DNA of 64,000 nucleotides from Pseudomonadota bacterium (GTDB lineage Bacteria; Pseudomonadota; Gammaproteobacteria; Steroidobacterales; Steroidobacteraceae), in contig JANYAE010000128.1 of assembly GCA_025355105.1 (NCBI GenBank), positions 9,850 to 73,849 on the forward strand, written 5' to 3'. Numbering within the stretch: the first letter of the stretch is position 1; each line of letters opens with the position of its first letter. The notes below the pieces were generated by a model. It was not told where the DNA came from and did not search any database. It worked only from the letters and a program-made list of their open reading frames with translations. A program made the position numbers and the translations under genes. Below, piece after piece: positions 3,888-49,924 of the stretch.

Positions 3888-3891
3888 GCGA

Positions 3892-31084: not shown

Positions 31085-31181
31085 CGCCACGGGCCGAGAC
31101 GCGGAGTCGAACGAGTAACGGAATAGCAAATCGCCGCGTCCGCCCAGATGGGAGCGCCGGTAGCGAAGGGGATCTGTCGTC

Positions 31182-35287: not shown

Positions 35288-36811
35288 TCAGGCCTTGTGG
35301 CCGACGAGCCGTCCCGCCGCCGTCGCGAGGGCCGCCCGCTGCGGCCGGTCCAGGCACAGCCTGGCGGCGACGATGCAATAGACGACCAGCGCCGCGGCAA
35401 CCTCGGCAATCAGCGTCAGCCAGGAGACCGGAGGGAGCGCGGCCTTGGCCGCGACGATCAGCGCCGCCGCGGGCACGATGCTCGCGAACGCCGGCAGAAA
35501 CGCCTGTCGCAGGTAGTGGCCGATCGAGATCCCGGCGAAGCGCGTCACCAGCAGCGGTACGAACAGCATCGAGGCCAGGACCTCCGGCACCGCGGTGCCC
35601 CAGGCTGCGCCGAGGATGCCGTAGGAGGGCAGCAGCGCGACCGATATCGCGACCTTTAGCGCAGCCTCGCCGAGCAGCACGAACGCCAGGTAGCGATGGC
35701 GATTGAGCCCGTACAGCACGGCGCCGGCCGGGAACTGTGCCATCGCGACGGTCTGCGACAACGTGAGGATGATCAGCACCGTGCCGCTTTCGGTGGCAAA
35801 TCGTGGCCCCATCCACAGCGTCAGGAACTCGCGTCCGAGCAGCGTGAACAACGCGGCGGCCGGCAGGATCACGGCCAGCGCGTAGCGCGTGCCGAAGGTC
35901 AGCAGATTGCGCAGCCGGTCACCTTCGCTGCTCGCTTCGAGGCTGCTGGCGGCCGGGCTGAAGACGTTGCCGAAGCCGTAAGCCAGCTGTCGCAGGTAGC
36001 GGACCAGGTTATTGGCGACCGCGAAGCGGGTGATGGCCAGCGTCGGCAGGAACAGGCCGATCAGGATGGAGTCGCTGTCGTAAAGGACCCGGGTGCCGAG
36101 CGCAATGACTGCGCTCCACAGCCCGTAGCCGTAGATCTTGCCGAGGATCGTCGGGTTCACCGCGCGACGGTCGAGCGAAAGCCACGGCAGACCGCGGTGG
36201 CACGCGACCGCCATGGTCACCATCATCAGTAGTTCCGAGGCGAGGCCGACGGCCGCGAGCGCCAGCAGTTTCTGGCTGTTCAGCAGCATGATCACGGTGA
36301 GCGCCGTGCGCAACAGGCTGAAGCCGATCGAGATGGCGTTCGCCACCTCGTAGCGCTGCAGCCCGGTCACGAAGCCCTCGAATACGCCACCCGGGAACTT
36401 GAGCGCGAGATTCAAGCCGACGATCAGCAGCACGAACCGCGCCTCGCTGGAGATCTCCGCCGGGATCGTGAACAGCTGCGGCAGGAACACGGCCGTCACA
36501 GCGACCAGGGCGAGAACCAGCAGGCCGATCGCCGAGTAGAGCGCCAGCGTCGTCGAAAACAGGCTACGCAAGCGCTCGCGGTCGTCGGCGGCGTGGTACT
36601 GCGAGACGTACTTGACGATGGAGGAGCGGACGCCGAAGTCGAGCAGGTTGCCGTAACCGACCAGCGAGACCACCAGCGTCCAGATCCCGTACAGGCTGTC
36701 GCCGAGGCGATGCACCATGAACGGCAGCATGAAGAAGCCGATCGCAATGCTGACCGCGAGGTTGGCCCAATTGGAGAAGATGTTCCTGGCGATGACCCGC
36801 GCGGTGCTCAT
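35288..36811 (-). CDS. Wzx-type oligosaccharide/polysaccharide flippase (MOP superfamily)
   Basis: 507-aa ORF with about 12-14 TM helices. The N-terminus is typical: IARNIFSNWANLAVSIAIGFFMLPFMVHRLGDSLYGIWTLVVSLVGY. Its ATG overlaps the upstream TGA (ATGA at 36808-36811). Confidence 0.8.
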   Translation of the reverse strand: MSTARVIARNIFSNWANLAVSIAIGFFMLPFMVHRLGDSLYGIWTLVVSLVGYGNLLDFGVRSSIVKYVSQYHAADDRERLRSLFSTTLALYSAIGLLVLALVAVTAVFLPQLFTIPAEISSEARFVLLIVGLNLALKFPGGVFEGFVTGLQRYEVANAISIGFSLLRTALTVIMLLNSQKLLALAAVGLASELLMMVTMAVACHRGLPWLSLDRRAVNPTILGKIYGYGLWSAVIALGTRVLYDSDSILIGLFLPTLAITRFAVANNLVRYLRQLAYGFGNVFSPAASSLEASSEGDRLRNLLTFGTRYALAVILPAAALFTLLGREFLTLWMGPRFATESGTVLIILTLSQTVAMAQFPAGAVLYGLNRHRYLAFVLLGEAALKVAISVALLPSYGILGAAWGTAVPEVLASMLFVPLLVTRFAGISIGHYLRQAFLPAFASIVPAAALIVAAKAALPPVSWLTLIAEVAAALVVYCIVAARLCLDRPQRAALATAAGRLVGHKA

Positions 36812-38436
36812 GGCCGCTGCGGCCCGATCGCAGCGCCGGGCGCCGGCGGCGCGGCAGGCAAGTCCGCGGCGGGCAGCACGAAGTCCGCTCGCAGGCCGAG
36901 CAGTCGGGCGCGCGAGGCCATGAAGCGCTCGTCCCGCAGCACCTCGCAGCAGCTCGCGACGAATTGCTCGAGAATCTCGGCGTGCGGATCGATGCCGCGC
37001 AGCGGCGTCACGACGCCGGTGACGATCCAGAAGTGGCGCGACGCACCGATGGCCCGATGCAATGGACGCGCGACATCCGGCTCGCCGTGCAGGACCTGTT
37101 CGGTCGGGTCGTAGCGCCTGCGGTCAGTGGGCCCCGGGATCGGCACCAGCCGGTTGAGGCCCGCGTAGTGATGGCCGAAGTCGAGCACGAACTCTGCCTT
37201 GAACACCAGAATCGGCTCGGCCGCGTGCTCGTTCTGTTCGATGTAGTGCGCGACCCGGATCCAGTCGCCCTGCTTGGCAAGCGGGCGGTAGTACTCGCGG
37301 AGGTAGGCTGTCGAGAACGCGAGGCTCAGCACCGCGACGATGACCGCGGTGCGAGCGCCACCGGCGTAACTCGCGAGCGCCAGCGCCGAGATCAGCACGG
37401 GCACGTAGAGGGCGACGGTGTGCTGGGCGCGCAGGAAGTCAGGTCCCAGGCCGAAGGCGATGACGATGAAGAACAAGCTGACGACGCTCGCGAGCAGCAG
37501 CGCCACGATCAGCTCGCGACGAGGCATCCGCCGCTGAAATACGGCCGCCACGAGTGCGGCGGGCAGCGCGAGACGCGAGATCCAGGTTCGCGCCAGCGCC
37601 AGCGCCGGGTTCCGGTCCAGCGGCAGGACCTGCTGCCAGAATGTCGCGCGGACAAGACGCACCGCCTCGAGCAGCGAGTGCTTGGCGGTGACGCCGATCG
37701 TGCCGACGGTCCGCATTTGCTGCAGAGTGGCCAATGCCTGGGGTGCGAAGGCGGCGGCGGTCAGGGCCATCGCCAGCAGGTAGCGGCGCAACGCCTGGCG
37801 GCGCCACAACGCCAGCAGCACGGCGGCCTCGGCCACCAACTGGAAGCCGAGGAAGTAGTAGGTGTAGAGCGCGGCGATCGCCAGCAGCGCGTGCCAGCGC
37901 CGGGCCGCTGCGGAGGACTGCTCGGCAAGGTAGCCGTCGTAGAACTTCAGCAGCAGCAGCGCCGAGAGCAGCAGCGCGAGCGCGTAGTAGCGCGCCTCGA
38001 CCGCGACGTAGACGGTCAGCGGGTTGCAGGCGATGACCGCAGCGACCAGCACCGGCGGCAAACGCGCCAGATAGCGGCGGGCGAGGCCCGCGGTCACGAC
38101 GATCGCCGCGGCGGTGCAGGCGACGGAGAACAGCCGGGCGAAGAACGCGGAATCGTTCAGCGCGCGCCAGACCGTCAGCAGCACGTAGTAGAGCGGTGGC
38201 TGCAGTTCGAAGCCCAGCGATCGAGCGATCGCGTGCCCGATGCCCTGGTCGGTGGTCTCGAGCGTATAGGCCTCGTCCACCCAGATGTTGAGGAGCGCCG
38301 CGAGCGGCAGCACGAGCGCCAGATGCAGCGCGACCACCAGCAGCAGGCCGAGGCGCTCGCGGCGGCCAGGCGCCGCCGGGCTCGCGGTGCCGACCTGCGC
38401 TGCCGCCAGATGATCGCTGCCGGACGGCAACGTCAT
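36808..38436 (-). CDS. GT-C fold glycosyltransferase (ArnT / PMT_2 / GT39-83-like; polyprenyl-phosphate-sugar dependent)
   Basis: 542-aa ORF with about 10-11 TM helices. The first periplasmic loop carries the acidic motif IWVDEAYTLETT that is typical of ArnT/PMT-type enzymes. A ~170-aa soluble C-terminal domain follows. Confidence 0.7.
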   Translation of the reverse strand: MTLPSGSDHLAAAQVGTASPAAPGRRERLGLLLVVALHLALVLPLAALLNIWVDEAYTLETTDQGIGHAIARSLGFELQPPLYYVLLTVWRALNDSAFFARLFSVACTAAAIVVTAGLARRYLARLPPVLVAAVIACNPLTVYVAVEARYYALALLLSALLLLKFYDGYLAEQSSAAARRWHALLAIAALYTYYFLGFQLVAEAAVLLALWRRQALRRYLLAMALTAAAFAPQALATLQQMRTVGTIGVTAKHSLLEAVRLVRATFWQQVLPLDRNPALALARTWISRLALPAALVAAVFQRRMPRRELIVALLLASVVSLFFIVIAFGLGPDFLRAQHTVALYVPVLISALALASYAGGARTAVIVAVLSLAFSTAYLREYYRPLAKQGDWIRVAHYIEQNEHAAEPILVFKAEFVLDFGHHYAGLNRLVPIPGPTDRRRYDPTEQVLHGEPDVARPLHRAIGASRHFWIVTGVVTPLRGIDPHAEILEQFVASCCEVLRDERFMASRARLLGLRADFVLPAADLPAAPPAPGAAIGPQRP

Positions 38437-38570
38437 CGCCGTCGCTCGTGGGGCGCCACGGGTTGCATCGATCTGCTCCAGCGTCTGCTAGCGGACCGGA
38501 GCGCAGCGACGGGCGCTGCGGCCGTCGCGCGACGCGTGCGCAGGCGACCGATCGGCTCGCGGCGCCGGCC

Positions 38571-38945
38571 TCACGAGCGGGCCACGAGCACGGCGCCCAC
38601 CGCGATCAGCAGCGTACCGACGATGCGATACAGGCCGACCGCCTCGTGCAGCACGAACACGCCGAGCAGCATCGTCATGATGAAGCCGAGCGCGACGAAC
38701 GGGTAGACGAGACTCAATTCGGCCTTCGACAGCACGAACAGCCACAGGCCGGCGCCGAGCATATAGGCGATCAAGCCGCCCATTACGAGCGGATTCAGCA
38801 GCGTCGTCAGCGCGACATTGACGAGGCCGCCCTTGCTCAGGCTCGCCTGCACGGCGCCGCTCGACATGCCCAGCTTCATCACCAGTTGCGCGACGGCGGA
38901 AATCGTCACGCAGGTGACGACCATCAGGAAGACCGGGAGTGTCAT
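38571..38945 (-). CDS. Small 4-TM EamA/SMR-like membrane protein (ArnE/ArnF- or GtrA-role candidate flippase for a polyprenyl-P-sugar)
   Basis: 124-aa hydrophobic ORF (MTLPVFLMVVTCVTISAVAQLVMKLGMS...) with GAGGA upstream. It lies between the sugar-nucleotide genes and the GT-C gene. Confidence 0.6.
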   Translation of the reverse strand: MTLPVFLMVVTCVTISAVAQLVMKLGMSSGAVQASLSKGGLVNVALTTLLNPLVMGGLIAYMLGAGLWLFVLSKAELSLVYPFVALGFIMTMLLGVFVLHEAVGLYRIVGTLLIAVGAVLVARS

Positions 38946-38973
38946 AGATCCTCGGGGGGTTCGGAGAGGGGCT

Positions 38974-39981
38974 CTAGGCGAGCGGTACCGGCACGCCGTT
39001 CTGCTTCAGCGACTTCTGCGCCGCCTCCAGCACCCTGATCACCCGCAGGCCGTCGCGGCCATCGCTGGTTGGGGTCTTGCGGTCGCGAACGCATTCCAGG
39101 AAGTGGGTGCACTCCAGCTGCAGCGGCTCGCCGATCTTGAGGTGCGGGATCGTGATGTCGCCGAAGCGCAGCGTCACGTACTCCGCGAAACTGCTGTAGT
39201 CGGGGTTGGTCGAAGCGCCCTTGTCGTAGATGCGCAGCTTCTCGGTGCCTTCGACGTCGTCGAACACGGCCATCTTCTGGCTGCCGACGATCGTCATCTT
39301 GCGGATCTTGTGCGGGTCGAGCCAGCTGACATGCACGTGGGCCATGCGCTTGTCACCGAAGTTGAGCGTCAGGAACACCACGTCCTCGATTCCGGGCTGC
39401 AGGTAGCACTGGCCGCGCGCCGACACGTCGGTTGGCTCGCCGCCGAGCAAGTAGAGAATCGACGAGATGTCGTGCGGCGCGAAGTTCCAGAGTGCGTTCT
39501 CGTCGCCGCGTACGGTGCCGAGGTTCACCCGCTGGTTGTAAATGTAGTAGATGTCGCCGAGCTCTTTCGATTCGATCATCTGCTTGAGGCGATTGACGAC
39601 CGGATGGTACTCGAGCAGGTGGCCGACCATCAGAATCCGCGCGCGCTCGTCGGCCAGCCGGATCAGGTCCTCCGCCTCAGCCGTCGACAGCGTGAACGGC
39701 TTTTCGACGTAGACATCCTTGCCGGCGAGCAACGCCGCCTTGCACAGCGGATAGTGCGACGGCGCGGTGGTCGCGATCACGATGGCGTGCAGCGCCGCGT
39801 CCTCGAGCATGTCCTCAAAGCGCGTCGTCATCGTCGCGCCGGGCAGCGCCGGCTGCATCTGGCGCAGCTTCTTCTCGTCGAGGTCGCAGACCGTCTTCAG
39901 GTGACAGCGCGGATTCTGGTGGTAATTGCGCGCCAGGTTCTTACCCCAGCCGCCGATTCCGACCAAGCCAACTTCGATCAT
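38974..39981 (-). CDS. Gfo/Idh/MocA-family NAD-dependent sugar-nucleotide oxidoreductase (WlbA/WbpB/GnnA-like 3-dehydrogenase candidate)
   Basis: The true start is MIEVGLVGIGGWGKNLARNY (Rossmann GxGxxG) at ATG 39981. The ORF-track extension to 40275 is Arg-rich junk that overlaps the upstream gene. Confidence 0.75.
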   Translation of the reverse strand: MIEVGLVGIGGWGKNLARNYHQNPRCHLKTVCDLDEKKLRQMQPALPGATMTTRFEDMLEDAALHAIVIATTAPSHYPLCKAALLAGKDVYVEKPFTLSTAEAEDLIRLADERARILMVGHLLEYHPVVNRLKQMIESKELGDIYYIYNQRVNLGTVRGDENALWNFAPHDISSILYLLGGEPTDVSARGQCYLQPGIEDVVFLTLNFGDKRMAHVHVSWLDPHKIRKMTIVGSQKMAVFDDVEGTEKLRIYDKGASTNPDYSSFAEYVTLRFGDITIPHLKIGEPLQLECTHFLECVRDRKTPTSDGRDGLRVIRVLEAAQKSLKQNGVPVPLA

Positions 39982-40004
39982 GACTGGACTCCTGCAGATT
40001 CTGG

Positions 40005-41183
40005 TCAGGCGGCGACGGACGGGCTGCCGCCGGTGGGTGCGGACCGGTCGCGGCCCTGCGCCAGCGCGATCGCGGCGTCCAGGATCCGTGCCGAGGCCTC
40101 GCCGTTGCCGAAGGCCGCGAGCGCGGCGAGCGGCGCGGCGCGTTCGGCCACGGGGCCGGTGGCGCGCATCCGGGCCGCCGCCGCGAGCACGCTGTCGCGC
40201 GCCGTGCCGGCGACGACGTTGCCGCCGAATTCGACGGTCTCGACCCACTCGGTCTCGTCGCGCAGCGTCACGCACGGACAGCCGAGGAAGAACGCCTCCT
40301 TTTGCAGGCCGCCTGAATCGGTCAGGGCGAGCTGCGCATGGTCGAGGAGCCAGAGCATGTCGAGGTATCCGACCGGCTCGATGAAGCGCAGCCGCGGATG
40401 CGCGGTCCAGTCGGGTGCCGCGGCACGGATGTACTGCGGCGTCCGCGGGTGAACCGGGAACACCAGCGTTAGGCCGTCCTCGGCCAGCTGATTGAGCGCG
40501 CCCAGCAGCGAGCGCAGTCGCGACGGGTCGTCGGTATTCTCGGCGCGGTGCACCGTGACGACGCCGAACGGCGTTGCCTCGAGCGCCAGCCGCGGCCCGA
40601 CCGTGGCGCTGCGACCGGCGATGGCGCGGTAGTGCAGCGTCGCGTCGAGCATCACGTCGCCGCAGAGCGACGAGCGCGCCGCCAGACCCTCCGCCGTCAG
40701 GTGGCCGAGCGCCGCCGGCGTCGGCGCCAGCAGCACGTCGCAGACGTGGTCGGCGGCAACGCGATTGATCTCCTCCGGCATGGCGCGGTTGAAGCTGCGT
40801 AGCCCGGCTTCGACGTGCGCCACCGGGATGTGCAACTTGACGGCCGCCAGCGCGCCGGCGAGCGTCGAGTTGGTATCGCCGTAGACGATCACCGCGTTCG
40901 GGCGCGACTCGAGCAGCACGCGCTCGATGCCGTCCAGCATCAGGCCCGTCTGCCGTCCGTGCGGCCCGGAGCCGACGCCGAGGTTGAAGGTTGCTTCCGG
41001 TAGGCTCAGCTCGCCGAAGAACACATCCGACATCGCCGCATCGTAATGCTGGCCGGTGTGCAGCAGCACGTGCTCGACGTCCGCCTTGCCCGCGGCGCGG
41101 TGCCGCTCGATCGCACGCGCCAACGGTGCGATTTTCACGAACTGGGGCCGGGCCCCGACGATGCTCAGCAGCTTGACGGTCAC
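40005..41183 (-). CDS. Non-hydrolysing UDP-N-acetyl-sugar 2-epimerase (WecB/WbpI family)
   Basis: GTG 41183 overlaps the upstream TGA (GTGA). Motifs are VKLLSIVGARPQFVKIAPL, LHTGQHYD, and DSGGLQKEAFFLGCPCVTLRDETEW. Confidence 0.85.
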   Translation of the reverse strand: MTVKLLSIVGARPQFVKIAPLARAIERHRAAGKADVEHVLLHTGQHYDAAMSDVFFGELSLPEATFNLGVGSGPHGRQTGLMLDGIERVLLESRPNAVIVYGDTNSTLAGALAAVKLHIPVAHVEAGLRSFNRAMPEEINRVAADHVCDVLLAPTPAALGHLTAEGLAARSSLCGDVMLDATLHYRAIAGRSATVGPRLALEATPFGVVTVHRAENTDDPSRLRSLLGALNQLAEDGLTLVFPVHPRTPQYIRAAAPDWTAHPRLRFIEPVGYLDMLWLLDHAQLALTDSGGLQKEAFFLGCPCVTLRDETEWVETVEFGGNVVAGTARDSVLAAAARMRATGPVAERAAPLAALAAFGNGEASARILDAAIALAQGRDRSAPTGGSPSVAA

Positions 41184-42382
41184 TTGCGGTAGAAGCAAGC
41201 GATCGTGGCGATCACGTGCTCTTGCTGCGCGGCGGTCAGTTCCGGGTAGATCGGAATCGCCAGCGTCTCGTTCGCCGCCTTCTCGGACTCGGGGCAGTCG
41301 CCGGCCTTGTAGCCGAGGCTGGCGAAGCACTTCTGGATATGCAGCGGCACCGGGTAGTAGACCTCGGTGCCGACGTGGGCGTCGTGCAGATGCTTCTTCA
41401 GGCCCTCGCGGTCACGAACGCGGACCACGTACTGGTTGTAGATGTGGCGGTAGCCCGGGACGACGACCGGGGTGGCGACGTTGCCGGCGAATGCCGGGCG
41501 CGCGAACGCCCGGTCGTAGACGGCCGCATTGCGCTGCCGCGCCGCGGTCCATCCGTCCAGCAGCCGGAACTTCACGAGCAGCACCGCCGCCTGCAGCTCG
41601 TCGAGGCGGAAGTTGCCGCCCACCACCGAGTGGTAGTACTTCGGCTTGCCGCCGTGGGCGCGCAGGATCTTGAGGCGCTCGGCCAGCGCCGGGTCGTTCG
41701 CCGTGCACAGGCCGGCATCGCCGAACGCGCCGAGGTTCTTGCTCGGGAAGAACGAGAAGCAACCAATGTCGCCGATGCTGCCGGCGCGCACGCCACCGCG
41801 GTATTCGGAGCCGATCGCCTGTGCCGCGTCCTCGACGACCTTGAGGCCGTTGGCCTTGGCAATCGCCATCAGCGGATCCATGTCGGCAACCTGGCCGAAC
41901 AGGTGGACCGGCATCAGCACCTTGATGCGGCCACCGGTGCGGCGATTGTAGAGCTGGCCACTGCGTAGCTCACCGAGCTCAGCGATCAGCTGGGCGACCG
42001 ACTGCGGCGACAGGTTGAAAGTCGCCGGGTCGATGTCGCAGAACAGCGGCCGCGCGCCGACCCGGGCGACGGTGCCGCCGGTGGCGAAGAACGTGTAGGG
42101 CGTCGTGATCACCTCGTCGCCGGGGCCGACGTCGAGGGCCATCAGCGCGACCAGCAGCGCGTCGGTGCCGGACGACACGCCGATGCCGAAGCCGCACTGC
42201 GAGTACTTGGCGATCTCCTTCTCGAGGCGGTCGACGTTCGCGCCGAGGATGAACATCTGGCTGGCGCAGACCTCGCGAATGACCTCGAGGACCTCCTTCT
42301 CGATGGTCGCGTACTGGGCCTTGAGATCGAGCAGCGGTACGACGGGTGTGGCCTGTGCGCCGGCGGCGGTGTTCGCGTTCAT
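41180..42382 (-). CDS. DegT/DnrJ/EryC1/StrS-family PLP-dependent sugar aminotransferase (WbpE/GnnB-like)
   Basis: 400-aa ORF with LLDLKAQY, SSGTDALLVALMALDVGPGDEVITTPYTF, and the PLP-lysine motif SFFPSKNLGAFGDAG. Confidence 0.85.
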   Translation of the reverse strand: MNANTAAGAQATPVVPLLDLKAQYATIEKEVLEVIREVCASQMFILGANVDRLEKEIAKYSQCGFGIGVSSGTDALLVALMALDVGPGDEVITTPYTFFATGGTVARVGARPLFCDIDPATFNLSPQSVAQLIAELGELRSGQLYNRRTGGRIKVLMPVHLFGQVADMDPLMAIAKANGLKVVEDAAQAIGSEYRGGVRAGSIGDIGCFSFFPSKNLGAFGDAGLCTANDPALAERLKILRAHGGKPKYYHSVVGGNFRLDELQAAVLLVKFRLLDGWTAARQRNAAVYDRAFARPAFAGNVATPVVVPGYRHIYNQYVVRVRDREGLKKHLHDAHVGTEVYYPVPLHIQKCFASLGYKAGDCPESEKAANETLAIPIYPELTAAQQEHVIATIACFYRK

Positions 42383-42394
42383 GATGAGCTCTCC

Positions 42395-42988
42395 TTACTT
42401 GCCGATTTCGGTGACGGCCTCGCCGACCCGCTGATATTGACGATGACAGGCATCGCACGCGGCGCGCGCGCTGTCGCCGGCCGCGAACGCGAGCTTGGTG
42501 CCGCAGTTGCAGACCCAGCCGCGGATCCGCGCCGGGCTGCCGTAGACCATCGCGTAGTCCGGCACGTCCTTGGTGACCACCGAACCGGCGCCGACGAAGC
42601 AGTAGCGCCCGAGCGTCGAGCCGCAGACGACCGTGGCGTTGGCGCCGATGCTGGCGCCGGTCTTGACCAGCGTCTGCAGGTACTGGTCGCGCCGCGATAC
42701 GTGCGAGCGCGGATTGATGACGTTGGTGAACACCATCGAGGGGCCGCAGAACACGTCGTCTTCGAGGATCACGCCAGTGTAAACCGAGACGTTGTTCTGG
42801 ATCTTGACGTTGTTGCCGACGCGGCAGCCCGGCGAAATCACGACGTTCTGGCCGATGTTGCAGCGTTCGCCGATCACGGTGTCCTTCATGATGTGCGAGA
42901 AGTGCCAGATGCTGGTGCCCTTGCCGATCTGGCACGGCTGGTCGACGTAACTGGACTCGTGGACGAAGTACGGCTGTTCGGTGCTCAT
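42395..42988 (-). CDS. Left-handed beta-helix (hexapeptide) N-acetyltransferase, WbpD/WlbB-like
   Basis: 197-aa ORF. The block [36 protein letters not shown] closely matches my recollection of P. aeruginosa WbpD ([34 protein letters not shown]). Confidence 0.8.
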   Translation of the reverse strand: [197 protein letters not shown]

Positions 42989-42989
42989 G

Positions 42990-44363
42990 TCAGGCTCGCT
43001 GGGGATGAGGAATGGGGCTCGGGCTCGCGACGCTCGCGGTGGCGGCGCGCGGCGCGGCGGCCAGCCGCTCGGCGTAGGCGGCCAGGAAGCCGTCGACGGC
43101 GCGGATGACCTCGTTGTTGTTCAGCGTCATGTGCGTGAACTGCGACGTGTTGACGACGAAGAAATCGGGGTGCGCGGACTCGATGCTCGGCACGAGGCTT
43201 GAATACTCGAGCACCTGCAGCGGCTGCACCTTGATGGCGCGGTTGATGACCGCGGACTCGATGCCGCGCTCGTCGAGGTCCGGGATCATGAGCCGCAGGC
43301 CCTCGAGGAACTCGTGGCGCAGCTCGTCGTCAGGGCGGCGCAGCACGGGACTGTTGGAGTCGACGTACTTCGGCAGGAAGGTCATGTGCAGGCCGGCAGT
43401 CTGCGTCGGGCTGACCAGGTTGCTCATGCCGATGATCCCGGTGAACGGGATGCGGGGGTCGGCGATGTTGACGATGTAGTAGGGGGTGAGCGGCTGACGC
43501 GTCACCAGCACCATGCAGATCACGCCGAGATACTCGACCTCGCGCCCGCGCGCGTCGTCGCGCACCAGGCCCGGCTCGGCCACCTGACGGAGCACGTTGG
43601 CGGGACTCGTGAACAGGACCTTGTCGAAGCGCTCGGCGCTCGTGCCGCACTCGATCGTCATGCCGGCGCCGTCCGCGGCGGCGGCGACCCGCGACACGGT
43701 GACGCCGGTGCGAATCTCGCCGCCGGCCTGGCCGATGACGCTCTGCAGCCGGCCGAACAGCGTCTTGTAGCCGCCGGCGACGTGCCCGAGCTGCTCCTTC
43801 TGGGCCGAGCCCTCGCGCGCCGAGAACATGCGCTTGATGTACGACCAGATGAATACCGCCGAGACCCGCTGGTAGTTGTCGCCGAGCTTGGCCAGCAGCA
43901 GCGGCTTCCAGATCTTTTCGTAGGTGGCCTTGCCGCCGAGCCGCTCGAGCCAGGCGCCGACGGGAATGCGCTCCAGCCGCCGCCAGTCGTCGATGCGCGC
44001 GCAGTACAGGATCGTCAGCGCGAGGCGCAGCTTGCCGATCAGGCTCACCGGCGGGAACCGCAGGAACTCGACCGCGCTGCTCATCGAGTGGAACTGGCGA
44101 TCGACGTAGAAGCCGGTCAGCGTGCGCGCCCAGCACAGCCGCTCGCCGAGGCCGATGTCGCGGATGAAGCCGATCAGCTGCGCGTCGCTCGGCAGGATCA
44201 CGTGGTAGAACTTGTCCCACTCGAAGGCGCCGTAGTCATGCCACGTCGTCAGGCCGCCGACCTGGCGATCCCGCTCGTAGACGGTCACCCGATGGCCCTG
44301 CGCGCTCAGCCGCTGCGCGAGCGCAAGGCCCATCAGGCCGCCGCCGATGACGCCGATCTTCAC
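42990..44363 (-). CDS. FAD/NAD(P)-binding oxidoreductase (amine-oxidase / HemY / phytoene-desaturase-like fold)
   Basis: 457-aa ORF. The N-terminal dinucleotide fold is MKIGVIGGGLMGLALAQRLSAQGHRVTVYERDRQVGG (GxGxxG ... E ... GG). Confidence 0.7.
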   Translation of the reverse strand: MKIGVIGGGLMGLALAQRLSAQGHRVTVYERDRQVGGLTTWHDYGAFEWDKFYHVILPSDAQLIGFIRDIGLGERLCWARTLTGFYVDRQFHSMSSAVEFLRFPPVSLIGKLRLALTILYCARIDDWRRLERIPVGAWLERLGGKATYEKIWKPLLLAKLGDNYQRVSAVFIWSYIKRMFSAREGSAQKEQLGHVAGGYKTLFGRLQSVIGQAGGEIRTGVTVSRVAAAADGAGMTIECGTSAERFDKVLFTSPANVLRQVAEPGLVRDDARGREVEYLGVICMVLVTRQPLTPYYIVNIADPRIPFTGIIGMSNLVSPTQTAGLHMTFLPKYVDSNSPVLRRPDDELRHEFLEGLRLMIPDLDERGIESAVINRAIKVQPLQVLEYSSLVPSIESAHPDFFVVNTSQFTHMTLNNNEVIRAVDGFLAAYAERLAAAPRAATASVASPSPIPHPQRA

Positions 44364-44400
44364 CGAGCGCCGGCCGCCGCCGCAGGCCGATCGGCGACGA

Positions 44401-45399
44401 TCACTTGCCGCCCTTCGCGGTGAAGGCTTTTTGCCACTCGATCGTGCGCGTCAGGCCGTCTTCGAGGCTCACCTTGGCCTTCACGCCGAGCAAGCGCTCG
44501 CACAGGCTCACGTCCGGAACCCGGCGGCGCACGTCCTCGTAACGCTTGCCGGTGAACGATTCGTAGGGCACCAGCTCGATCTTGGCTTCGCCGGGTTGGC
44601 CGCTGAGGCGATGAATGAGCTGCGCCAACTGCAGGATCGTGACCTCGCGATTGCTGCCGAGGTTGATGATTTCGCCATTCGCGGCGGGATTGACAGCCGA
44701 CTGGTAGATGCCCTCGACGGTGTCGGTCACGAAGGTGAAGCTGCGGGTCTGCTGACCGTCACCGTGGATCGGGATCGTGCGGCCGTTGAGCACGGAGTCG
44801 ATGAACACCGACTGCGGTCCGCCCCACCAGGTGAGGTGCTGGCGCGGGCCGTACGAGCCGAAGAAGCGCAGTACCGTGACCGGGATCTCGAAGCTCTCCT
44901 GGTAGGCGAAGGCGAGGTGCTCGTCGAACAGCTTGGATACGGCGTACGACCAGCGCGCGACCTTCGACGAACCGATGACCGACTCGCTCTCTTCGCTGAA
45001 CGGCACGGCCGGATTGCGTCCGTAGATGTCGCTGGTCGAGGCGATGACGCACTTGCACTTCGAGCGCACCGCGAACTGCAGGATTTCGTCCGTGCCGAGG
45101 TAGTTGATCCGCAGCGTGTCGATCGCCTTGCCGTAGCGCGGGATCTTGAAGGCCGCCAGGTGCACGACGCAGTCGAAGTCGCTGTCGAGCGCGTCGAAGG
45201 TGTCCTTGCGGGTGATGTCGGCCTGCACGAGTCGAAAGCGCGGGTTCGCCGAGTGGTGCTCGACGTTGGAGAGGCGGCCCATCGACACGTTGTCGACGCC
45301 GACCACCGTGTGACCGGCCTCGAGCAGCCGATCGAGGAGATGGGAGCCCAGGAATCCTGCGACGCCTGTTACAAGGAACTTCTGCGGACGGCTGGTCAT
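44401..45399 (-). CDS. Extended-SDR NAD-dependent sugar-nucleotide epimerase/dehydratase (UDP-glucuronate decarboxylase / ArnA-C-like)
   Basis: GAGG lies 5 nt before ATG 45399 (MTSRPQKFLVTGVAGFLGSHL = GxxGxxG). Other motifs are ASTSDIYG and the catalytic YAVSK (YxxxK). The ORF is open to TTG 45423. Confidence 0.8.
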   Translation of the reverse strand: MTSRPQKFLVTGVAGFLGSHLLDRLLEAGHTVVGVDNVSMGRLSNVEHHSANPRFRLVQADITRKDTFDALDSDFDCVVHLAAFKIPRYGKAIDTLRINYLGTDEILQFAVRSKCKCVIASTSDIYGRNPAVPFSEESESVIGSSKVARWSYAVSKLFDEHLAFAYQESFEIPVTVLRFFGSYGPRQHLTWWGGPQSVFIDSVLNGRTIPIHGDGQQTRSFTFVTDTVEGIYQSAVNPAANGEIINLGSNREVTILQLAQLIHRLSGQPGEAKIELVPYESFTGKRYEDVRRRVPDVSLCERLLGVKAKVSLEDGLTRTIEWQKAFTAKGGK

Positions 45400-45463
45400 T
45401 CGTGCCTCTGAGGTCTCGTGCAATCTGGGTAGTGAAACGGTAGATGCGCTGCGGCGTGCGCCG

Positions 45464-46606
45464 TCAGTCGCGACGGTCGCGTCGCGCCGACGCGTCGTCG
45501 TGGCGCGCTTCGTTGTGCGCCCGGTAGATCGTGCTCGCGAGGTGGAACAGTTCCTCGAAGTAGCTCTTGCTCTGCAGCGACAGGACGCCGAGGCTGATCA
45601 GCTGGATGGCGATCATCAGCGAGGCGATGCCGACGATGAAGGTGTGCGGCGAGGCGGCGAACGCGGCGCCGACCGCCGCCGAGGAACGTGCGAAGAAGTC
45701 CGGGTACTGGCCGAGCTGGTGGTACTGGTCCATGAAGTGCGCGATCACCCAGCCATTTGAGTAGATCGCGAAGGCGAGCATCAGCAGGCCCGGGAGCAGA
45801 AAGAAGATCACCGGCCGGAACAGGAAGCCCGACAGGATGGTGCGCAGCGTGTGGCTCCAGAGGCGCATGCTCGAGCGACGCGCCGGTGCCTCCTTCAGCA
45901 GGCTCCAGTCAAGATGCGCCGGAATTTCCTCGACCCGGGCGCCGAGCAGCATCGCCTTGTAGATGATCTCGGGCATGACGTCCATGCCGCGGGCGCGCAG
46001 ATTCAGGGAGCGCAGGAATCGCGCGTCGTAGGCGCGCACCATGCTCGTCAGCGTCGACAGGCTGCTCCTCGACGTCTTCGCCAGGAAGCGGTTCGCCCAA
46101 ACGCTGAGCGTGCGCCGCAGCCACGGGACGTTGGAGATCTCGCCGCCCTTCATGTAGGGCGAGGCCACCACGATCTTGGCGCGGGTCGCGCGGATGCGCT
46201 CCAGCAGCCGGGCGATGTGCTCGACGTCGTAGCTCAAATCGGCGTCGAGCGTGATGATGTACTCGCCGCGGCACTGGCGGAATGCGAAGCGAAAGGCCTG
46301 GCCGAGCCCGAAATTAGTGATGTGATGAAAGACGCGGACCTCAGGCGTCGCGCGCGCGAACTCTTCGGCGATCGCGCTTGTGTCGTCGACGCTGCCGTCG
46401 TTGACCAGGACGATCTCCCAGCGATAGTCGGCCTCGAGGCCGCGCATGTAGCTGCACAGCCGGCGCAGCGAATTGCCGATCAGCGCCGCCTCGTTGTATG
46501 CGGGCACGACCAGCGAGACCAGCGGCCGGGCCTCGGCTGCCGTGCCGGGTGCTGGCACGCCGCCGCCGTCGCGCTGTTCGGATCCGCTCATCACGTTCAT
46601 CGGCAT
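45464..46606 (-). CDS. Family-2 glycosyltransferase of the polyprenyl-phosphate sugar synthase type (GtrB/ArnC/DPM1-like) with two C-terminal TM helices
   Basis: Motifs are VSLVVPAYNEAALIGNSL, IVLVNDGSVDDT and ITLDADLSY. The C-terminal TMs are FLFRPVIFFLLPGLLMLAFAIY and FIVGIASLMIAIQLISLGVLSL. Confidence 0.8.
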   Translation of the reverse strand: MPMNVMSGSEQRDGGGVPAPGTAAEARPLVSLVVPAYNEAALIGNSLRRLCSYMRGLEADYRWEIVLVNDGSVDDTSAIAEEFARATPEVRVFHHITNFGLGQAFRFAFRQCRGEYIITLDADLSYDVEHIARLLERIRATRAKIVVASPYMKGGEISNVPWLRRTLSVWANRFLAKTSRSSLSTLTSMVRAYDARFLRSLNLRARGMDVMPEIIYKAMLLGARVEEIPAHLDWSLLKEAPARRSSMRLWSHTLRTILSGFLFRPVIFFLLPGLLMLAFAIYSNGWVIAHFMDQYHQLGQYPDFFARSSAAVGAAFAASPHTFIVGIASLMIAIQLISLGVLSLQSKSYFEELFHLASTIYRAHNEARHDDASARRDRRD

Positions 46607-46918
46607 GCTGATTCCCGTCTCTGATTAACCCACCATTCTAATACGGCTGACGCGCGCGCCGGTCCGAATCCGGCGACCCGGTGCGCTCGGTAGGCAGGCG
46701 GTGCGAGTGCACGTCGGTCGCGTGTGGGGACGCCGCACGAGGCCGTCCCGGGCGACCGTGGGCAACGGGCGCCGTGTTTCGTCTGTAAGCGGGTCCTTCG
46801 CATCTCATCTCGCCGGCCGGTCGGAACGCGCTTGCCCCCGGCGGACACCGATCCTCCGTGAAACCGGCGTCATCCCTGTCGCTGCAGGTGGACGATTCCA
46901 CCTGTAGATCCATGTTTC

Positions 46919-46947
46919 CAAATAGTTTATGACGCGTGCGATGACAA
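46919..46947 (-). promoter_or_regulatory. Weak sigma-70-like promoter candidate for the minus-strand operon (would imply a ~310-nt leader)
   Basis: On the minus strand the sequence reads TTGTCA (46947-46942), a 17-nt spacer, then TATTTG (46924-46919). It lies in the only AT-rich island of the 999-bp gap. The -10 element is poor. Confidence 0.2.
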
Positions 46948-47605
46948 GAACGTGATGGGCTGCCGCTTTTGGCCGCCGTGCTGCCGATCGTCCGGTTTGG
47001 CGAGACGGGCGTGCCGGGGCGGCACCGCAACCGGCACCGGTTTGGCGCCGGCTGAAGCGGCCTCCTGGCAGGTGTCTGCGAACAGGCGCCCGGTTCCACA
47101 CGAGGACGTTGACGCGATCACCGGCGGATGCCGTCGGCGCCCGCCGGCGCGGCAAGGTGCCGGCCGCGCGGGTTGCGCTGCGGCGGTCCACGCGGCGCTC
47201 GCGGGCGCGGCAGCAGCCGCTCGGCCCTGGCGCCAGGTCGTGCTCAGGCCGGCCCACATTCATGGCTGTCTCTCCCAGCGCCGGCAGTGTCGCCGCGCAG
47301 ACGTCAAGCGGTCCGGGCCGACCGCCCACAATTGACATAATGCACGTCACGGCTCCCAGAGTGGAGCCCGGGCGGCAGGGCCGGAGCGTGGTCGGACGCG
47401 CCCGTGGGCCGACGCGATCTGCCACGGCAGCCGCTGGCCCGGCCGCGGTACGCACCGCAGCGGCGCGCAGTGCGCCCCGATAGACTGAGCGCATGCCGCC
47501 GCGTCACCCGCCGCTTCAGGTCACGTCCCGGGCGAGGGTTCCCCGGATCGCGCCGGCGCCGAGCGCGGGGCGCGCCGCGCAGCCCCGGCGCTGAGGCTGG
47601 CGAGC

Positions 47606-48565
47606 ATGTCCAGTGCCTGGTCAAGGATCCTGGGTCCGCTTGCCGGCCTGCTCGCGGGCGGCGCCTTTCTCGCGCTGGCCTTCCGCTCAACGCCACCCGC
47701 CGCGGTCTGGGAACTGCTGCGCCACGGCCGCTGGGGCCTGCCGGCGCTGCTGGTCGTCGCGGGGACCGGCCTCTTCGTGCTTGCCAAGGTGGCGCGCTGG
47801 CGTTATCTGCTCGGCGCCGGCCTGCGTCGACGGACGTTGGCGCCGCCGGTGCTGAGCGGCCTCGCGCTGAACGCCCTGATCCCGCACTCCGGCGAATTCG
47901 TGCGCGCGGTGGCCGTTGCGCGCAGCACCGGCCAGCCGGCCTCCGCCGTGCTGTCCTCGATCGTCGCCGAGCGGGTCTTCGACCTATTCGGCGTGCTGAT
48001 CCTCGGCTCGCTCGCGGCGGCGTTCACGCCGGCGAACGCCGACCTCGCCATGGCGCTGCGTCTGATCGGCGCCATCGCCGCGCTGCTCGCGCTTTGCGTT
48101 GTCGCCTTCGTTTCATGGCCGCAGTCGATCGAGCGACTGGTCAGCCGATGCACGCGACCGTTGCCGCCGGCCGTGCAGCAGTGGGTGGCACGGCATGCGG
48201 CGGCGGCGTTGCTCGGTCTCGCGCCCGTAAAATCGGTCGCCACCTCGGTGCGCGTGCTGGCGTGGTCGGTGGTCCAATGGCTCGCGGTGGCGTTGGCCGT
48301 CTACGGCTGCGCCGCGGTCATCGGTTTCGACGCCGGTCTCGCCGCAACCTGCCTGGTGGTCGTCGGCATCGTGGTGGCCTTCCTGCTGCCGAACGCGCCG
48401 GGCTATGCCGGCTCGGTACAGGTTGCCTTCCTGGTCACGCTGGTGCCGCTCGGCGTGGCGCGCGAGGCGGCGCTCGCGGCCTCGATCGTCTACCAGTTGC
48501 TGATGGTGCTGCCGCTGATCGTCGTCGGCCTCGCGTGCCTCGGCCCGACGCTCGCCAAGCGCTGA
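47606..48565 (+). CDS. UPF0104 / LPG-synthase-TM ('flippase-like') family integral membrane protein
   Basis: 319-aa ORF with about 8 TM helices. The N-terminus LGPLAGLLAGGAFLALAFRS and the motif PNAPGYAGSVQVAF are typical of this family. Confidence 0.65.
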   Translation: MSSAWSRILGPLAGLLAGGAFLALAFRSTPPAAVWELLRHGRWGLPALLVVAGTGLFVLAKVARWRYLLGAGLRRRTLAPPVLSGLALNALIPHSGEFVRAVAVARSTGQPASAVLSSIVAERVFDLFGVLILGSLAAAFTPANADLAMALRLIGAIAALLALCVVAFVSWPQSIERLVSRCTRPLPPAVQQWVARHAAAALLGLAPVKSVATSVRVLAWSVVQWLAVALAVYGCAAVIGFDAGLAATCLVVVGIVVAFLLPNAPGYAGSVQVAFLVTLVPLGVAREAALAASIVYQLLMVLPLIVVGLACLGPTLAKR

Positions 48566-48572
48566 TCAGCGC
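48559..48572. repeat. Perfect 14-bp palindrome formed by two abutting convergent stop codons
   Basis: GCGCTGA|TCAGCGC: TGA (48563-48565) of the plus-strand gene is directly followed by TCA (48566-48568), the TGA of glrR on the minus strand. The intergenic distance is zero. Confidence 0.9.
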
Positions 48573-49924
48573 GCCTTGAATTCCTCCGGCGACAGCGTGT
48601 GGCGGGCGAGCAGCTTGTAGAAGTCGGTGCGGTTGCGTTTGGCGAGGCGCGCGGCCTGGCTGACGTTGCCGCCGGTGATCTGCAGGATCTGCACCAGGTA
48701 GTTGCGCGTGAACTCGTCGCGCGCCGCGTCGTAGGAGGGCAGGCCCGCGGCGCCGGCGCCGACTGCCTGTTCGGCGATCTCGGCACTGATGACCGAGGTC
48801 TGAGCGATCGTCGCGTTCTGGTGCACCACCGCTTGCAGCTGGCGGATATTGCCGGGCCATTCGGCGGTCGCGAGGAACTCGACGGCCTCCGGCGCATAGA
48901 TCTTGCGCGAACCGGTCTCAACCGCGATCTGCTCAAGGAAGTGCGCGACCAGCAGCGGGATGTCCTCGCGACGACGCGCGAGCGCCGGCACGTCGATGTG
49001 CACGACGTTGAGACGGTAGTACAGATCCTCGCGGAATCTTCCTTGCACCATCAGCTGGGCCAGGTCCTGCCGCGTCGTGGCCATGACGCGCGCGTTCACC
49101 GGCCGCGTCTGGTCGGTGCCGGCCGGTCGCACCAGATTCTCCTGCAGCGCGCGCGCCAGCTTCGCCTGCAGTGGTAACGGCAGGTCGGCAACCTCCTCGA
49201 GCACCACCGTGCCGCCCTCGGCCGCCTGCAGCAGGCCCTTCTGGGTCTTGGCGGCGCCCGGGATCGTGCCGTTGTCGTAGCCGAACAGGTCCGTCTCGAG
49301 GTCGCTCTCGGCGACCTCGGTGCACGACAGCACGACGAATGGGCCGTCGCGTCGCGTGCTGGCCCGGTGGATCGCGCGCGCCAGCAGCTTTTTGCCGACG
49401 CCGGCGTCGCCGGTAATCAACACGCGCGCGTCGGTCGCCGCCACCATGTGCGCCTGGGAGAGCTTCTCCTCCATCAGCGGCGAGCGCGTGACGAGGTCGG
49501 CGCGCCACTCCTCGTCAACCGACGGGAAGCCCGAAATCCTGAGCGCCTTCTGCACCTGGTCAAGCAGCTCCTGCTTCTCGACCGACTTGGTCATGAAGCT
49601 GAAGGCGCCGCTCTGGGTGGCGCGAACGGCGTCCGGGATCGTGCCGTGGGCCGTCAGCAGGATCACCTTGAGGCCGGGCCAGCGGACCTGCAGCTCTTTC
49701 AGCAGACCGATGCCGTCCATCTGGTCCATGCGCAGGTCGGTGATGACGAGGTCCGGGCGGAAGCGGCCGACCGCGGCCAAGGCCTCGGCGGCGCTTTGCA
49801 CCGCCTCGACCTCGTAGTTCTCCGATCGCAGGCGGATGGTCAGCAGGCGCAGCAGGCCCGGGTCGTCGTCCACCGCGAGGATCTTCGCGCGCCGCTTGGT
49901 CGAGTCTTTGCGTTGGGCCTGCAT
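48566..49924 (-). CDS. glrR: Sigma-54-dependent two-component response regulator GlrR (QseF)-like
   Basis: The receiver domain (KILAVDDDPGLLRLLTIRLRSENYEVEAV...PDLVITDLRMDQMDGIGLL...ILLTAHGTIPDAVRATQSGAFSFMTKSVEK) is near-collinear with E. coli GlrR as I recall it. The AAA+ domain has Walker A GDAGVGKK and the GAFTGA-like loop. The Fis HTH is GGNVSQAARLAKRNRTDFYKLLARH. Confidence 0.85.
   Translation of the reverse strand: MQAQRKDSTKRRAKILAVDDDPGLLRLLTIRLRSENYEVEAVQSAAEALAAVGRFRPDLVITDLRMDQMDGIGLLKELQVRWPGLKVILLTAHGTIPDAVRATQSGAFSFMTKSVEKQELLDQVQKALRISGFPSVDEEWRADLVTRSPLMEEKLSQAHMVAATDARVLITGDAGVGKKLLARAIHRASTRRDGPFVVLSCTEVAESDLETDLFGYDNGTIPGAAKTQKGLLQAAEGGTVVLEEVADLPLPLQAKLARALQENLVRPAGTDQTRPVNARVMATTRQDLAQLMVQGRFREDLYYRLNVVHIDVPALARRREDIPLLVAHFLEQIAVETGSRKIYAPEAVEFLATAEWPGNIRQLQAVVHQNATIAQTSVISAEIAEQAVGAGAAGLPSYDAARDEFTRNYLVQILQITGGNVSQAARLAKRNRTDFYKLLARHTLSPEEFKAR

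Follow-up and report, generated by a model that had tools for sequence, protein, structure and literature searches.

A ten-gene locus of a Steroidobacteraceae bacterium predicted to join a diacetamido-sugar pathway to lipid-carrier periplasmic glycosylation

What is built by the ten genes found at positions 35288-46606 of a 64,000-nucleotide stretch of Steroidobacteraceae DNA (hereafter the window; assembly GCA_025355105.1, contig JANYAE010000128.1, positions 9,850 to 73,849), and where in the cell is the product used? The original prediction, made from the letters of the DNA, was that these genes decorate a glycan in the periplasm with an unusual di-N-acylated amino sugar. Homology and comparative genomics support it, and the genes are read here as a putative operon encoding a lipid-carrier periplasmic glycosylation system joined to its own donor-sugar pathway. 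The probability of this reading was estimated at roughly 0.6.

All ten open reading frames (ORFs) were recovered on the minus strand in this interval. The window is about 69 % GC and the third-position GC content of the ten ORFs, 0.84-0.95, is the pattern of real genes. The gaps, counted from the glycosyltransferase gene (GT2) at the head to the Wzx-like flippase gene at the end, are 64, 37, 1, 12, -4, 23, 28, 134 and -4 nt, in agreement with the claim of ten co-directional, tightly packed genes (gaps of -4 to +134 nt). The starts assigned earlier to the genes for the short-chain dehydrogenase/reductase (SDR), the 2-epimerase (WecB) and the GFO-type oxidoreductase (GFO) give products shorter than the longest ORFs, yet they match the lengths of the orthologs. 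Classification of the products with hidden Markov models confirmed nine of the ten family calls by Pfam and NCBIfam. Upstream of GT2 lies a divergent intergenic region of approximately 1 kb (46607-47605), presumed to be the promoter region. A 229-aa ORF inside it (46805-47494) was considered as the first operon gene and rejected on its codon-position GC (GC1/2/3 of 0.73/0.71/0.70); since it lacks the third-position bias and is rich in Arg, Ala and Pro, it is probably no gene.

The case for a lipid carrier begins with the GT2 protein (45464-46606), which matches PF00535 with E 1e-34 and comprises a GT-A domain followed by two hydrophobic segments (residues ~253-293 and 314-347). Its best relatives in the PDB, aligned over the catalytic domain, are the dolichol-phosphate mannose synthase (DPMS) of Pyrococcus (5mlz, E 3.5e-16), ArnC (9hwj, 8vxh and 9bhc) and GtrB (5ekp), and the D121-x-D123 motif is invariant across 45 orthologs. 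The description of GT2 as a GtrB/ArnC-like enzyme with two C-terminal membrane segments agrees with these nearest structures. GT2 resembles polyprenyl-phosphate glycosyltransferases and is a candidate for activity on a lipid acceptor.

The product of 36808-38436 had been called an ArnT/PMT-like enzyme of the GT-C fold. No match to it was found in Pfam, NCBIfam (E<=0.01) or among PDB sequences, a direct match to the PF13231 (PMT_2) model was likewise absent at E<=0.01, and a profile of its family compared with PDB sequences gave nothing useful. The family is small, with 43 close relatives in a set of 5.8 billion proteins, only two of which carry any precomputed Pfam match. The protein has approximately 11-12 hydrophobic segments, with the motif WVDEAYT after the first of them, and ends in a soluble domain of about 150 aa. 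An AlphaFold (AF2) model built on a 35-sequence alignment reached a pLDDT of 89 and a pTM of 0.88, and when it was compared with the PDB by Foldseek the top 27 matches were all GT-C enzymes, ArnT being the first (TM-score 0.40) and STT3/OST, ALG9/12, AftA/B, DPY19 and PglB following. The family profile also aligned with that of distant PF13231-bearing relatives (hhalign, A1 vs A4) with a probability of 99.9 %, E 2.3e-32 over 373 columns, and the two groups have the motifs WxDEAxT and PPLYYVL in common. The pair D54-E55 after the first membrane segment, an acidic first-loop motif, is invariant across 75 relatives. The model and the profile comparison place the putative product among the GT-C enzymes, in a divergent branch of PMT_2 (GT39/GT83-like). 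The original call was thus borne out by the model fold and the profile comparison, not by a direct family match.

Which sugar would be loaded by GT2 can be read from the four genes in the middle of the operon. The left-handed beta-helix protein (LbH; 42395-42988), a WlbB/WbpD-like 3-N-acetyltransferase candidate, matches Hexapep (E 4e-22) and, over nearly its full length, the lipopolysaccharide (LPS) biosynthesis acetyltransferase WlbB (PDB 3mqg, 211 bits, E 1.2e-61). The DegT-family aminotransferase (41180-42382; PF01041, E 5e-107) falls into the C3 clade (WbpE/QdtB/DesV-like): it scored 268 bits against QdtB, 256 against 2oga and 252 against WbpE, but only 115-146 against ArnB structures, and the NCBIfam ArnB model gave 159.6 bits with a cutoff of 631, unlike an ArnB-type C4 aminotransferase. 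WecB (40005-41183) is a non-hydrolysing UDP-N-acetylhexosamine 2-epimerase of the WecB/WbpI type (TIGR00236 wecB 305 bits, over the cutoff of 210; PF02350 E 7e-99). GFO (38974-39981), a GFO/IDH/MocA oxidoreductase with the Pfam domains PF01408 and PF22725, is a candidate GnnA-like UDP-GlcNAc 3-dehydrogenase, and the earlier call of a 3-dehydrogenase stands in so far as its closest models are of this kind; its best NCBIfam match is the archaeal UDP-GlcNAc 3-dehydrogenase with 165 bits, under the cutoff of 450. The top PDB matches of GFO are 3c1a and 7bvj, the latter of which we take to be GnnA, and no WlbA structure was found among its PDB matches at E<=1e-15. Because of these clade assignments the pathway is read as UDP-GlcNAc to the 3-keto sugar, UDP-GlcNAc3N, UDP-GlcNAc3NAc and UDP-ManNAc3NAc, a route which GFO, DegT, LbH and WecB would fit. 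The predicted diacetamido-sugar logic was borne out by LbH and DegT, both placed in C3 clades, and by WecB, scoring above its cutoff. An Arn-type reading, with the SDR making a 4-keto sugar and DegT aminating C4, was rejected; DegT and LbH group with the C3 enzymes.

The SDR (44401-45399), probably an extended, C4-oxidising enzyme of the UXS/ArnA-C type, matches Pfam Epimerase and GDP_Man_Dehyd. Its top PDB match is human UXS1 (158 bits, E 2.5e-45), with epimerases and ArnA behind. It retains STS[D]xYG, YxxxK and the Arg of RRRVPD, which is aligned with the arginine of 'QKRKPD' in UXS1, and all three elements, residues of a decarboxylase-type active site, are invariant across 50 orthologs. No UDP-sugar 6-dehydrogenase (UDPG_MGDP_dh, WbpA-type) match was found in any scanned ORF of the window, as had been noted originally in spite of the decarboxylase-like SDR, yet this enzyme is encoded in two related clusters, L094 and L178.

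Two proteins are candidates for the flippase. The one encoded at 38571-38945 is a 124-aa EamA/ArnE-F-like protein with four hydrophobic segments, with 27.7 bits against EamA (cutoff 28.2) and a full-length alignment to the ArnF model NF002816 of 36.6 bits (cutoff 99); a match to GtrA (PF04138) was not found. The other, a MOP-superfamily (Wzx/MATE-like) protein (35288-36811), is encoded by the last gene, which shares 4 nt with the end of the GT-C gene; it scored 36 bits against MatE, over the cutoff of 24.9, and 47.6 bits against NF041503 WZX_like, under the cutoff of 300. The four-segment protein is found at the same position and with 63 % identity in the related loci L094 and L095, and paired small EamA proteins similar to it adjoin the FAD gene described below in Nostoc and Chroogloeocystis. 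Wzx lies downstream of GT-C in L094 and L095 (65 % identity), in L096 and in L003 (48 % identity), where the cassette is absent. The Wzx-like protein may flip the lipid-linked sugar or may serve the adjoining Wzx/Wzy polysaccharide locus. Either assignment has a precedent, since Kelly et al. 2024 (PMC11127046) described a MATE-type flippase for an undecaprenyl-phosphate-linked pentose, together with a GalE-like SDR acting on the lipid-linked sugar. Of the three-component module proposed originally (load, flip, transfer), the loading and transferring enzymes could be retained as GT2 and GT-C, whereas the flippase is ambiguous between these two candidates.

The survey of the ten-gene order showed that the exact order is rare, whereas a seven-gene cassette, GT2-SDR-FAD-LbH-DegT-WecB-GFO, is conserved and widespread; FAD denotes here the gene of a flavin adenine dinucleotide-dependent oxidoreductase (42990-44363). 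In L094 and L095, with GT-C proteins 50-58 % identical to that of the window, the order is GT2-SDR-FAD-LbH-DegT-WecB-GFO-EamA(125 aa)-(second WecB)-GT-C-(GT)-Wzx, and a Wzy-containing polysaccharide cluster follows. In L087, L089 and L090 (FAD 63-66 % identical) all seven genes of the cassette are orthologous, at 55-73 % identity. Around FAD homologs of 56-77 % identity in 80 metagenome loci, counting only those with enough flank, the neighbours were SDR in 51 of 62 loci (its gene directly upstream of FAD), GT2 in 34/50, LbH in 47/66, DegT in 32/51, WecB in 24/39 and GFO in 19/32. The conserved unit is this seven-gene cassette, widespread in environmental Proteobacteria, and its GT-C partner is interchangeable, several metagenome cassette loci carrying a PMT_2/PMT-type GT-C in place of the window's type. 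The four-segment protein, GT-C and Wzx together form the tail of the window operon, a rare arrangement that was met only in the near relatives L094 and L095. The physical link between the sugar pathway and the lipid-carrier module, postulated from this single locus, was found in many genomes.

The commonest continuation of the cassette, present in about 13 of 29 metagenome loci, is a set of genes for a deacetylase (Polysacc_deac_1), a protein of ~100 aa possibly similar to acyl carrier protein (ACP), a ketoreductase and an AMP-ligase (L089 15469-18839; L090 15554-18969), often with a methyltransferase or hexapeptide transferase after it. Such a continuation suggests that one N-acetyl group is swapped for another acyl. 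In two loci a second lipid-linked-sugar set stands beside the first, consisting of UbiA and a PMT_2 GT-C in L002 (7226-9971) and of GT2, GtrA, GT87 and PMT_2 in L087 (56-3579).

A genome survey anchored on GT-C gave 167 relatives, all of <=41 % identity, in Acidobacteriota, Eremiobacterota, Cyanobacteria, Nitrospirota and Planctomycetota. FAD was the commonest neighbour of the GT-C family, in 46 of 82 genome loci, and was followed by LbH (40), GT2 (35) and DegT (33). GT2 at these loci, the acidobacterial ones included, is often fused to a deacetylase, and minimal loci consist of WecB, deacetylase::GT2, FAD, a deacetylase, a small ORF and GT-C. By coupling GT2::deacetylase, FAD and GT-C, the acidobacterial and minimal loci mirror known load-deacetylate-flip-transfer systems. 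Heterocystous cyanobacteria encode a FAD ortholog 62 % identical to that of the window, though their genomes have 34-41 % GC. Nostoc strains carry bare modules of the types EamA-EamA-FAD-GT2 and deacetylase-FAD-GT2-EamA (L119 7104-10136, Nostoc; L177 8577-12640, Nostoc sp. UHCC 0302), and Chroogloeocystis has a full cluster including a UDP-sugar 6-dehydrogenase, a PMT_2 GT-C and a DUF4082/DMFA2_C protein.

No other component accompanies GT2 and GT-C as constantly as the FAD enzyme, and this holds for any set of sugar genes. The enzyme belongs to Pfam Amino_oxidase/NAD_binding_8 and scored 449.2 bits against NF005560 (PRK07233; cutoff 252), aligned over 1-429 of 435, a model named 'hypothetical protein' by NCBI. 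Its structural model (pLDDT 86) is closest to protoporphyrinogen oxidase (PPO) and phytoene desaturase (PDS), with TM-scores of 0.76-0.79. The family counts 839 clusters (50 % identity) at E<=1e-30 and ranges over Proteobacteria, Cyanobacteria, Acidobacteriota, Eremiobacterota and other groups. Natural fusions join the FAD domain to GT2 (P0190, P0292), Polysacc_deac_1 (P0205) or a hexapeptide transferase (P0285), and five of ten long members (P0184, P0227, P0257, P0293, P0294) have a C-terminal S-adenosylmethionine-dependent methyltransferase, which is weakly NodS-like in two of the fusions. From these associations the enzyme is predicted to work in the lipid-carrier section of the pathway or in the steps immediately adjoining it. 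The original family call was correct, and the enzyme is grouped here with GT2, the flippase and GT-C, apart from the sugar-nucleotide pathway.

Among the candidate roles of the FAD enzyme, oxidation of the carrier-bound sugar was ranked, by analogy, above a nucleotide-sugar step near the N-acetyltransferase, and this above modification of the polyprenyl chain. A bolder proposal would make PRK07233 an unrecognised fourth component of polyprenyl-phosphate glycosylation systems, acting at the membrane on the lipid-linked intermediate; it is put forward tentatively, the odds being against it. As such a component the enzyme could be a counterpart of DprE1, though not homologous to it, and oxidise the sugar on the carrier; alternatively it could change the saturation of the polyprenyl chain and so provide a dedicated, dolichol-like carrier for bacterial DPMS-like and PMT-like enzymes. 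For chain modification, a passage of PMC10821996 offers a precedent in a phytoene-desaturase homolog acting on archaeal membrane isoprenoids, and a commentary points to unexplored FAD-dependent oxidoreductases in the three-component systems of Bacillus (PMC11194591). In the literature no description was found of the PRK07233 family or of the FAD/GT2/GT-C combination, the cyanobacterial EamA/FAD/GT2 modules included.

Two other roles were considered for this enzyme. A function like that of UDP-galactopyranose mutase is not favoured, this mutase ranking 44 among the fold matches with E 0.004 by sequence. The idea of a C6 oxidase replacing WbpA and feeding the UXS-like SDR lost ground through L178 and L094, where FAD occurs together with a conventional 6-dehydrogenase, and was weakened further because the Nostoc modules have FAD without SDR.

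Related FAD operons were also seen in L092 (Burkholderia stagnalis plas2, 3500-9739) and L093 (Rhizobium tumorigenes pRt932, 3510-9700), in the order UbiA, DprE1-like FAD-binding oxidoreductase, DprE2-like SDR, epimerase/dehydratase SDR, PRK07233-like FAD and GtrA. The FAD homologs are distant (25-28 % identity), with an SDR beside them, and the operons appear to be a decaprenyl-phosphate-arabinose-type pathway with an extra SDR+FAD pair.

Put together, the scheme would run as follows. In the cytoplasm GFO would oxidise UDP-GlcNAc at C3, DegT would aminate the 3-keto product, the WlbB-like enzyme would N-acetylate it to UDP-GlcNAc3NAc and the WecB-like enzyme would epimerise C2 to give UDP-ManNAc3NAc. 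The UXS-like SDR would then act at C4, either of this sugar or of the corresponding uronate. Should the uronate be provided by a 6-dehydrogenase encoded at another locus, the SDR would be a decarboxylase, and otherwise an epimerase or oxidase. GT2 would load the sugar onto polyprenyl phosphate, and the FAD enzyme would work with it at the membrane, most likely on the lipid-linked intermediate, either oxidising the sugar in the manner of DprE1 or changing the polyprenyl chain. The lipid-linked sugar would be flipped by the four-segment EamA-like protein, alternatively by the Wzx-like MOP protein, and transferred in the periplasm by GT-C to an acceptor that is most probably the adjoining Wzx/Wzy polysaccharide, alternatively the DUF4082 proteins described below.

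Several observations weigh against this scheme. The best NCBIfam matches of GT2, PpgS and ArnC, are both far under their cutoffs, as is the ArnF score of the four-segment protein. The SDR is decarboxylase-like though no 6-dehydrogenase was found among the scanned ORFs of the window. Near close FAD orthologs, counterparts of the window's four-segment protein, GT-C and Wzx were found in 0/31, 0/29 and 0/25 eligible loci, respectively, so that the GT-C step is no obligatory part of the cassette, and at some cassette loci no GT-C was seen within the available flanks. FAD adjoins, and is sometimes fused to, an N-acetyltransferase, which could mean a nucleotide-sugar step and not a lipid-linked one. 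Finally, consensus promoter and terminator scans of the operon region gave chance-level results and no promoter motif, sigma-54 included, rose above chance upstream of GT2; co-transcription of the ten genes as one operon is therefore inferred from gene spacing only.

The surroundings of the operon bear on the identity of the acceptor. An exopolysaccharide (EPS)-type block occupies positions 1-23628 on the plus strand and includes GT2, methyltransferase, GT4, Wzy_C (7283-8725), formyltransferase (8662-9543), two AsnB-like amidotransferase, heparinase II/III-like, Poly_export, GNVR and P-loop kinase-like genes; three ORFs of the block, 3892-5295 (minus), 6171-7346 (plus) and 9345-10778 (plus), had no Pfam match. 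Since the window is a surface-polysaccharide region, EPS is the most economical acceptor. Matching Wzy_C and Formyl_trans_N genes were noted in L094, on the strand of its cassette and downstream of its Wzx.

Between this block and the operon lie genes for two secreted DUF4082 proteins (24242-33941, plus strand), whose membership of the system is tentative and which could be acceptors or partner enzymes. The first (24242-30913) has 2223 aa with four DUF4082 domains and DMFA2_C, the second (31182-33941) has 919 aa, and both have signal-peptide-like N-termini and a Ser+Thr content of 21-23 %. DUF4082/DMFA2_C proteins also occur beside or inside the cassette in L087 (3876-6890), L096 (1841-9868), L100, L144 (~4778-6847), L148, L149 and L178 (13705-16749). 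With the window this makes eight loci in Proteobacteria and Cyanobacteria, and their overlap with the loci carrying the Polysacc_deac_1/ACP/ketoreductase/AMP-ligase set is 0 of ~34, in a sample that is phylogenetically non-independent. Nothing linking DUF4082 to such a system was found in the literature.

Several further genes were noted nearby. A membrane protein of the LPG_synthase_TM/TIGR00374 'flippase-like domain' type is encoded divergently to the operon (47606-48565, plus strand); its gene is also present in L083 and L084, other contigs of the same organism, but inspection of more distant cassette loci (L087, L089, L090, L095) did not reveal it. It is followed by genes for a GlrR-like sigma-54 response regulator (48566-49924, minus strand; 516 bits against a cutoff of 763) and a HAMP histidine kinase (50575-52053, minus strand). 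The flanking genes, those of the GlrR-like regulator, SrkA, TypA and GalE, suggest Pseudomonadota in general, as do the named relatives of FAD. Farther along are a TIGR03016-like PEP-CTERM-system-associated outer-membrane protein (56813-58243, plus strand; 61 bits against a cutoff of 90.85) and a 1228-aa PAS/GAF/GGDEF/EAL protein (58360-62046, plus strand), which together hint at cyclic di-GMP-linked control of the biofilm matrix.

The secreted proteins raise an alternative in which GT-C moves the lipid-linked diacetamido sugar to Ser/Thr residues of the DUF4082/DMFA2_C proteins and not to a polysaccharide. This protein O-glycosylation, of the kind carried out by GT39 protein mannosyltransferases, would suit a GT-C family of the PMT_2 branch, annotated as GT39-like, although PMT_2 also includes ArnT-like enzymes with no protein-glycosylating role. 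The signal-peptide-like N-termini and Ser+Thr content of the two window proteins are in its favour, and so is the recurrence of such proteins beside the cassette across Proteobacteria and Cyanobacteria with different GT-C families; in L144 the DUF4082 gene even stands between FAD and a GT-C candidate, and in L178 between GT-C and GT2. On the other hand, L094 and L095, the closest full-order relatives, have a Wzx/Wzy cluster and no DUF4082 gene within 10 kb, DUF4082/DMFA2_C matches were found in 0 of 63 GT-C-anchored genome loci longer than 12 kb, and the proteins would be partners and not acceptors if DMFA2_C proved to be an enzyme domain, as it may. We regard O-glycosylation as unlikely, though ahead of the other two alternatives.

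Modification of lipid A or core in the manner of Arn, Francisella or Bordetella, with an amino sugar, possibly deacetylated, altering the surface charge, is decidedly improbable. ArnT is the top structural match of GT-C, and SDR, DegT, N-acyltransferase, GT2, the four-segment EamA protein and GT-C parallel the Arn pathway stepwise; ArnD-like Polysacc_deac_1 deacetylases occur in related loci, some of them fused to GT2, and the L094 cassette contains a sulfatase/phosphotransferase-type gene. However, DegT belongs to the C3 and not the ArnB clade, the window operon has neither deacetylase nor deformylase, GT-C is not matched by the ArnT models of Pfam and NCBIfam, a fully N-acetylated sugar adds no positive charge, and the locus is embedded in an EPS-type region. 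Lower still stands the explanation by an ordinary cytoplasmic cluster, in which a conventional GT2 would use UDP-ManNAc3NAc on an undecaprenyl-diphosphate-linked unit that Wzx flips, the polytopic protein of 36808-38436 being a polymerase, a ligase or an unrelated membrane protein. In its favour, the known Wbp/Wlb systems normally use their diacetamido sugars for assembly in the cytoplasm, GT2 comes from a broad family and has PpgS and ArnC scores far under the cutoffs, and the operon ends in Wzx within a Wzx/Wzy region. Against this explanation, the closest structures of GT2 are polyprenyl-phosphate glycosyltransferases, whose C-terminal membrane segments it has, the polytopic protein has the GT-C fold and DE motif and not a Wzy fold, and a separate Wzy_C gene exists in the EPS block. 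Moreover, GT2, small EamA and GT-C are found together in different phyla, and GT2 is in some cases fused to a deacetylase. Periplasmic transfer from a lipid carrier, most probably to the adjoining polysaccharide, is the reading preferred here.

The overall strategy, in which a sugar is made, loaded on a lipid, flipped and transferred, is an ordinary one. The locus departs from the ordinary in its predicted diacetamido donor, in a GT-C branch that is unclassified, in a UXS-like SDR conserved with no 6-dehydrogenase nearby and, above all, in its conserved flavoenzyme partner. If the preferred reading is true, the three-component scheme now covers a diamino sugar that is heavily N-acetylated and is made by a pathway contained wholly in one cassette, and a GT-C family lacking a Pfam model is defined. 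Of greatest value is the finding that lipid-carrier glycosyltransferases are accompanied across phyla by members of a large, uncharacterised family of flavoenzymes, and the role of this family is testable genetically because the same module exists in culturable, tractable Nostoc strains. Such systems would shape the EPS, LPS or surface-protein chemistry of soil and freshwater bacteria and are possible parts for glycoengineering.

How the locus relates to known systems can be followed from the sugar to the membrane. Like the Wbp/Wlb systems (WbpA, B, E, D, I), which lead to UDP-ManNAc3NAcA, and the GnnA/GnnB route to UDP-GlcNAc3N, it has the order of 3-dehydrogenase (here a candidate), 3-aminotransferase, 3-N-acetyltransferase and 2-epimerase. 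It differs from Wbp/Wlb in that GFO resembles UDP-GlcNAc 3-dehydrogenase models more closely than WlbA and that the product is predicted to be destined for a lipid-monophosphate carrier and not for cytoplasmic glycosyltransferases; since WbpA was not found in the window, it is not the canonical uronate pathway. In having a flavoenzyme and an SDR beside a polyprenyl-phosphate sugar synthase the operon recalls mycobacterial DprE1/DprE2, which epimerise decaprenyl-phosphate-ribose. The FAD enzyme, however, has the amine-oxidase/PPO/PDS fold and not the VAO-type FAD_binding_4 fold of DprE1, and the SDR, unlike DprE2, is of the extended UXS-like type, so the analogy would be one of logic only.

With the Arn pathway for lipid A Ara4N and the hexosamine systems FlmF2/NaxD/FlmK of Francisella and LgmABC of Bordetella the locus has in common a C4-oxidising SDR, DegT, N-acylation, GT2, an EamA-type flippase candidate and GT-C, and related loci, though not the window, add ArnD/NaxD-like deacetylases as in Arn and Francisella. 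Unlike Arn, it has a C3-clade aminotransferase, a WlbB-like acetyltransferase in place of a formyltransferase and the additional GFO, WecB and FAD, and lipid A is probably not its acceptor. Neither a Formyl_trans_N nor a Polysacc_deac_1 domain (ArnA formyltransferase, ArnD) was found in the ten genes, the sole formyltransferase of the window being that of the distant EPS block, and GT-C had no ArnT match (PF02366/NCBIfam) at E<=0.01, its likeness to ArnT being at the level of fold only. Because of the C3 aminotransferase, the lack of formyltransferase and deformylase and the lack of an ArnT model match, the operon is not considered an Arn system.

The general three-component periplasmic scheme is well described (Mann & Whitfield 2016, as cited in PMC11127046). 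In the original prediction the combination was said not to be known as a described system; this does not hold for the general scheme, but no description of the exact combination was found in the literature. As in the Gtr systems of Shigella and Salmonella and the pentofuranose systems of Kelly et al. (PMC11127046), the predicted components are a polyprenyl-phosphate sugar synthase (of the GT2 or another type in those systems), a flippase that is either small or of the MATE type, and a GT-C enzyme working outside the cytoplasm, and as in the latter an auxiliary SDR may act on the lipid-linked sugar. Judged by domain content and by the GT-C model, the operon would have the structural features of the Gtr/Arn scheme apart from an unambiguous flippase. 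It is set apart from Gtr systems by the predicted 2,3-diacetamido donor with its whole nucleotide-sugar pathway in the operon, by a small membrane protein that is EamA/ArnE-F-like and not GtrA, by a GT-C family with no Pfam match, and by the PRK07233 FAD enzyme and the UXS-like SDR as conserved extra components.

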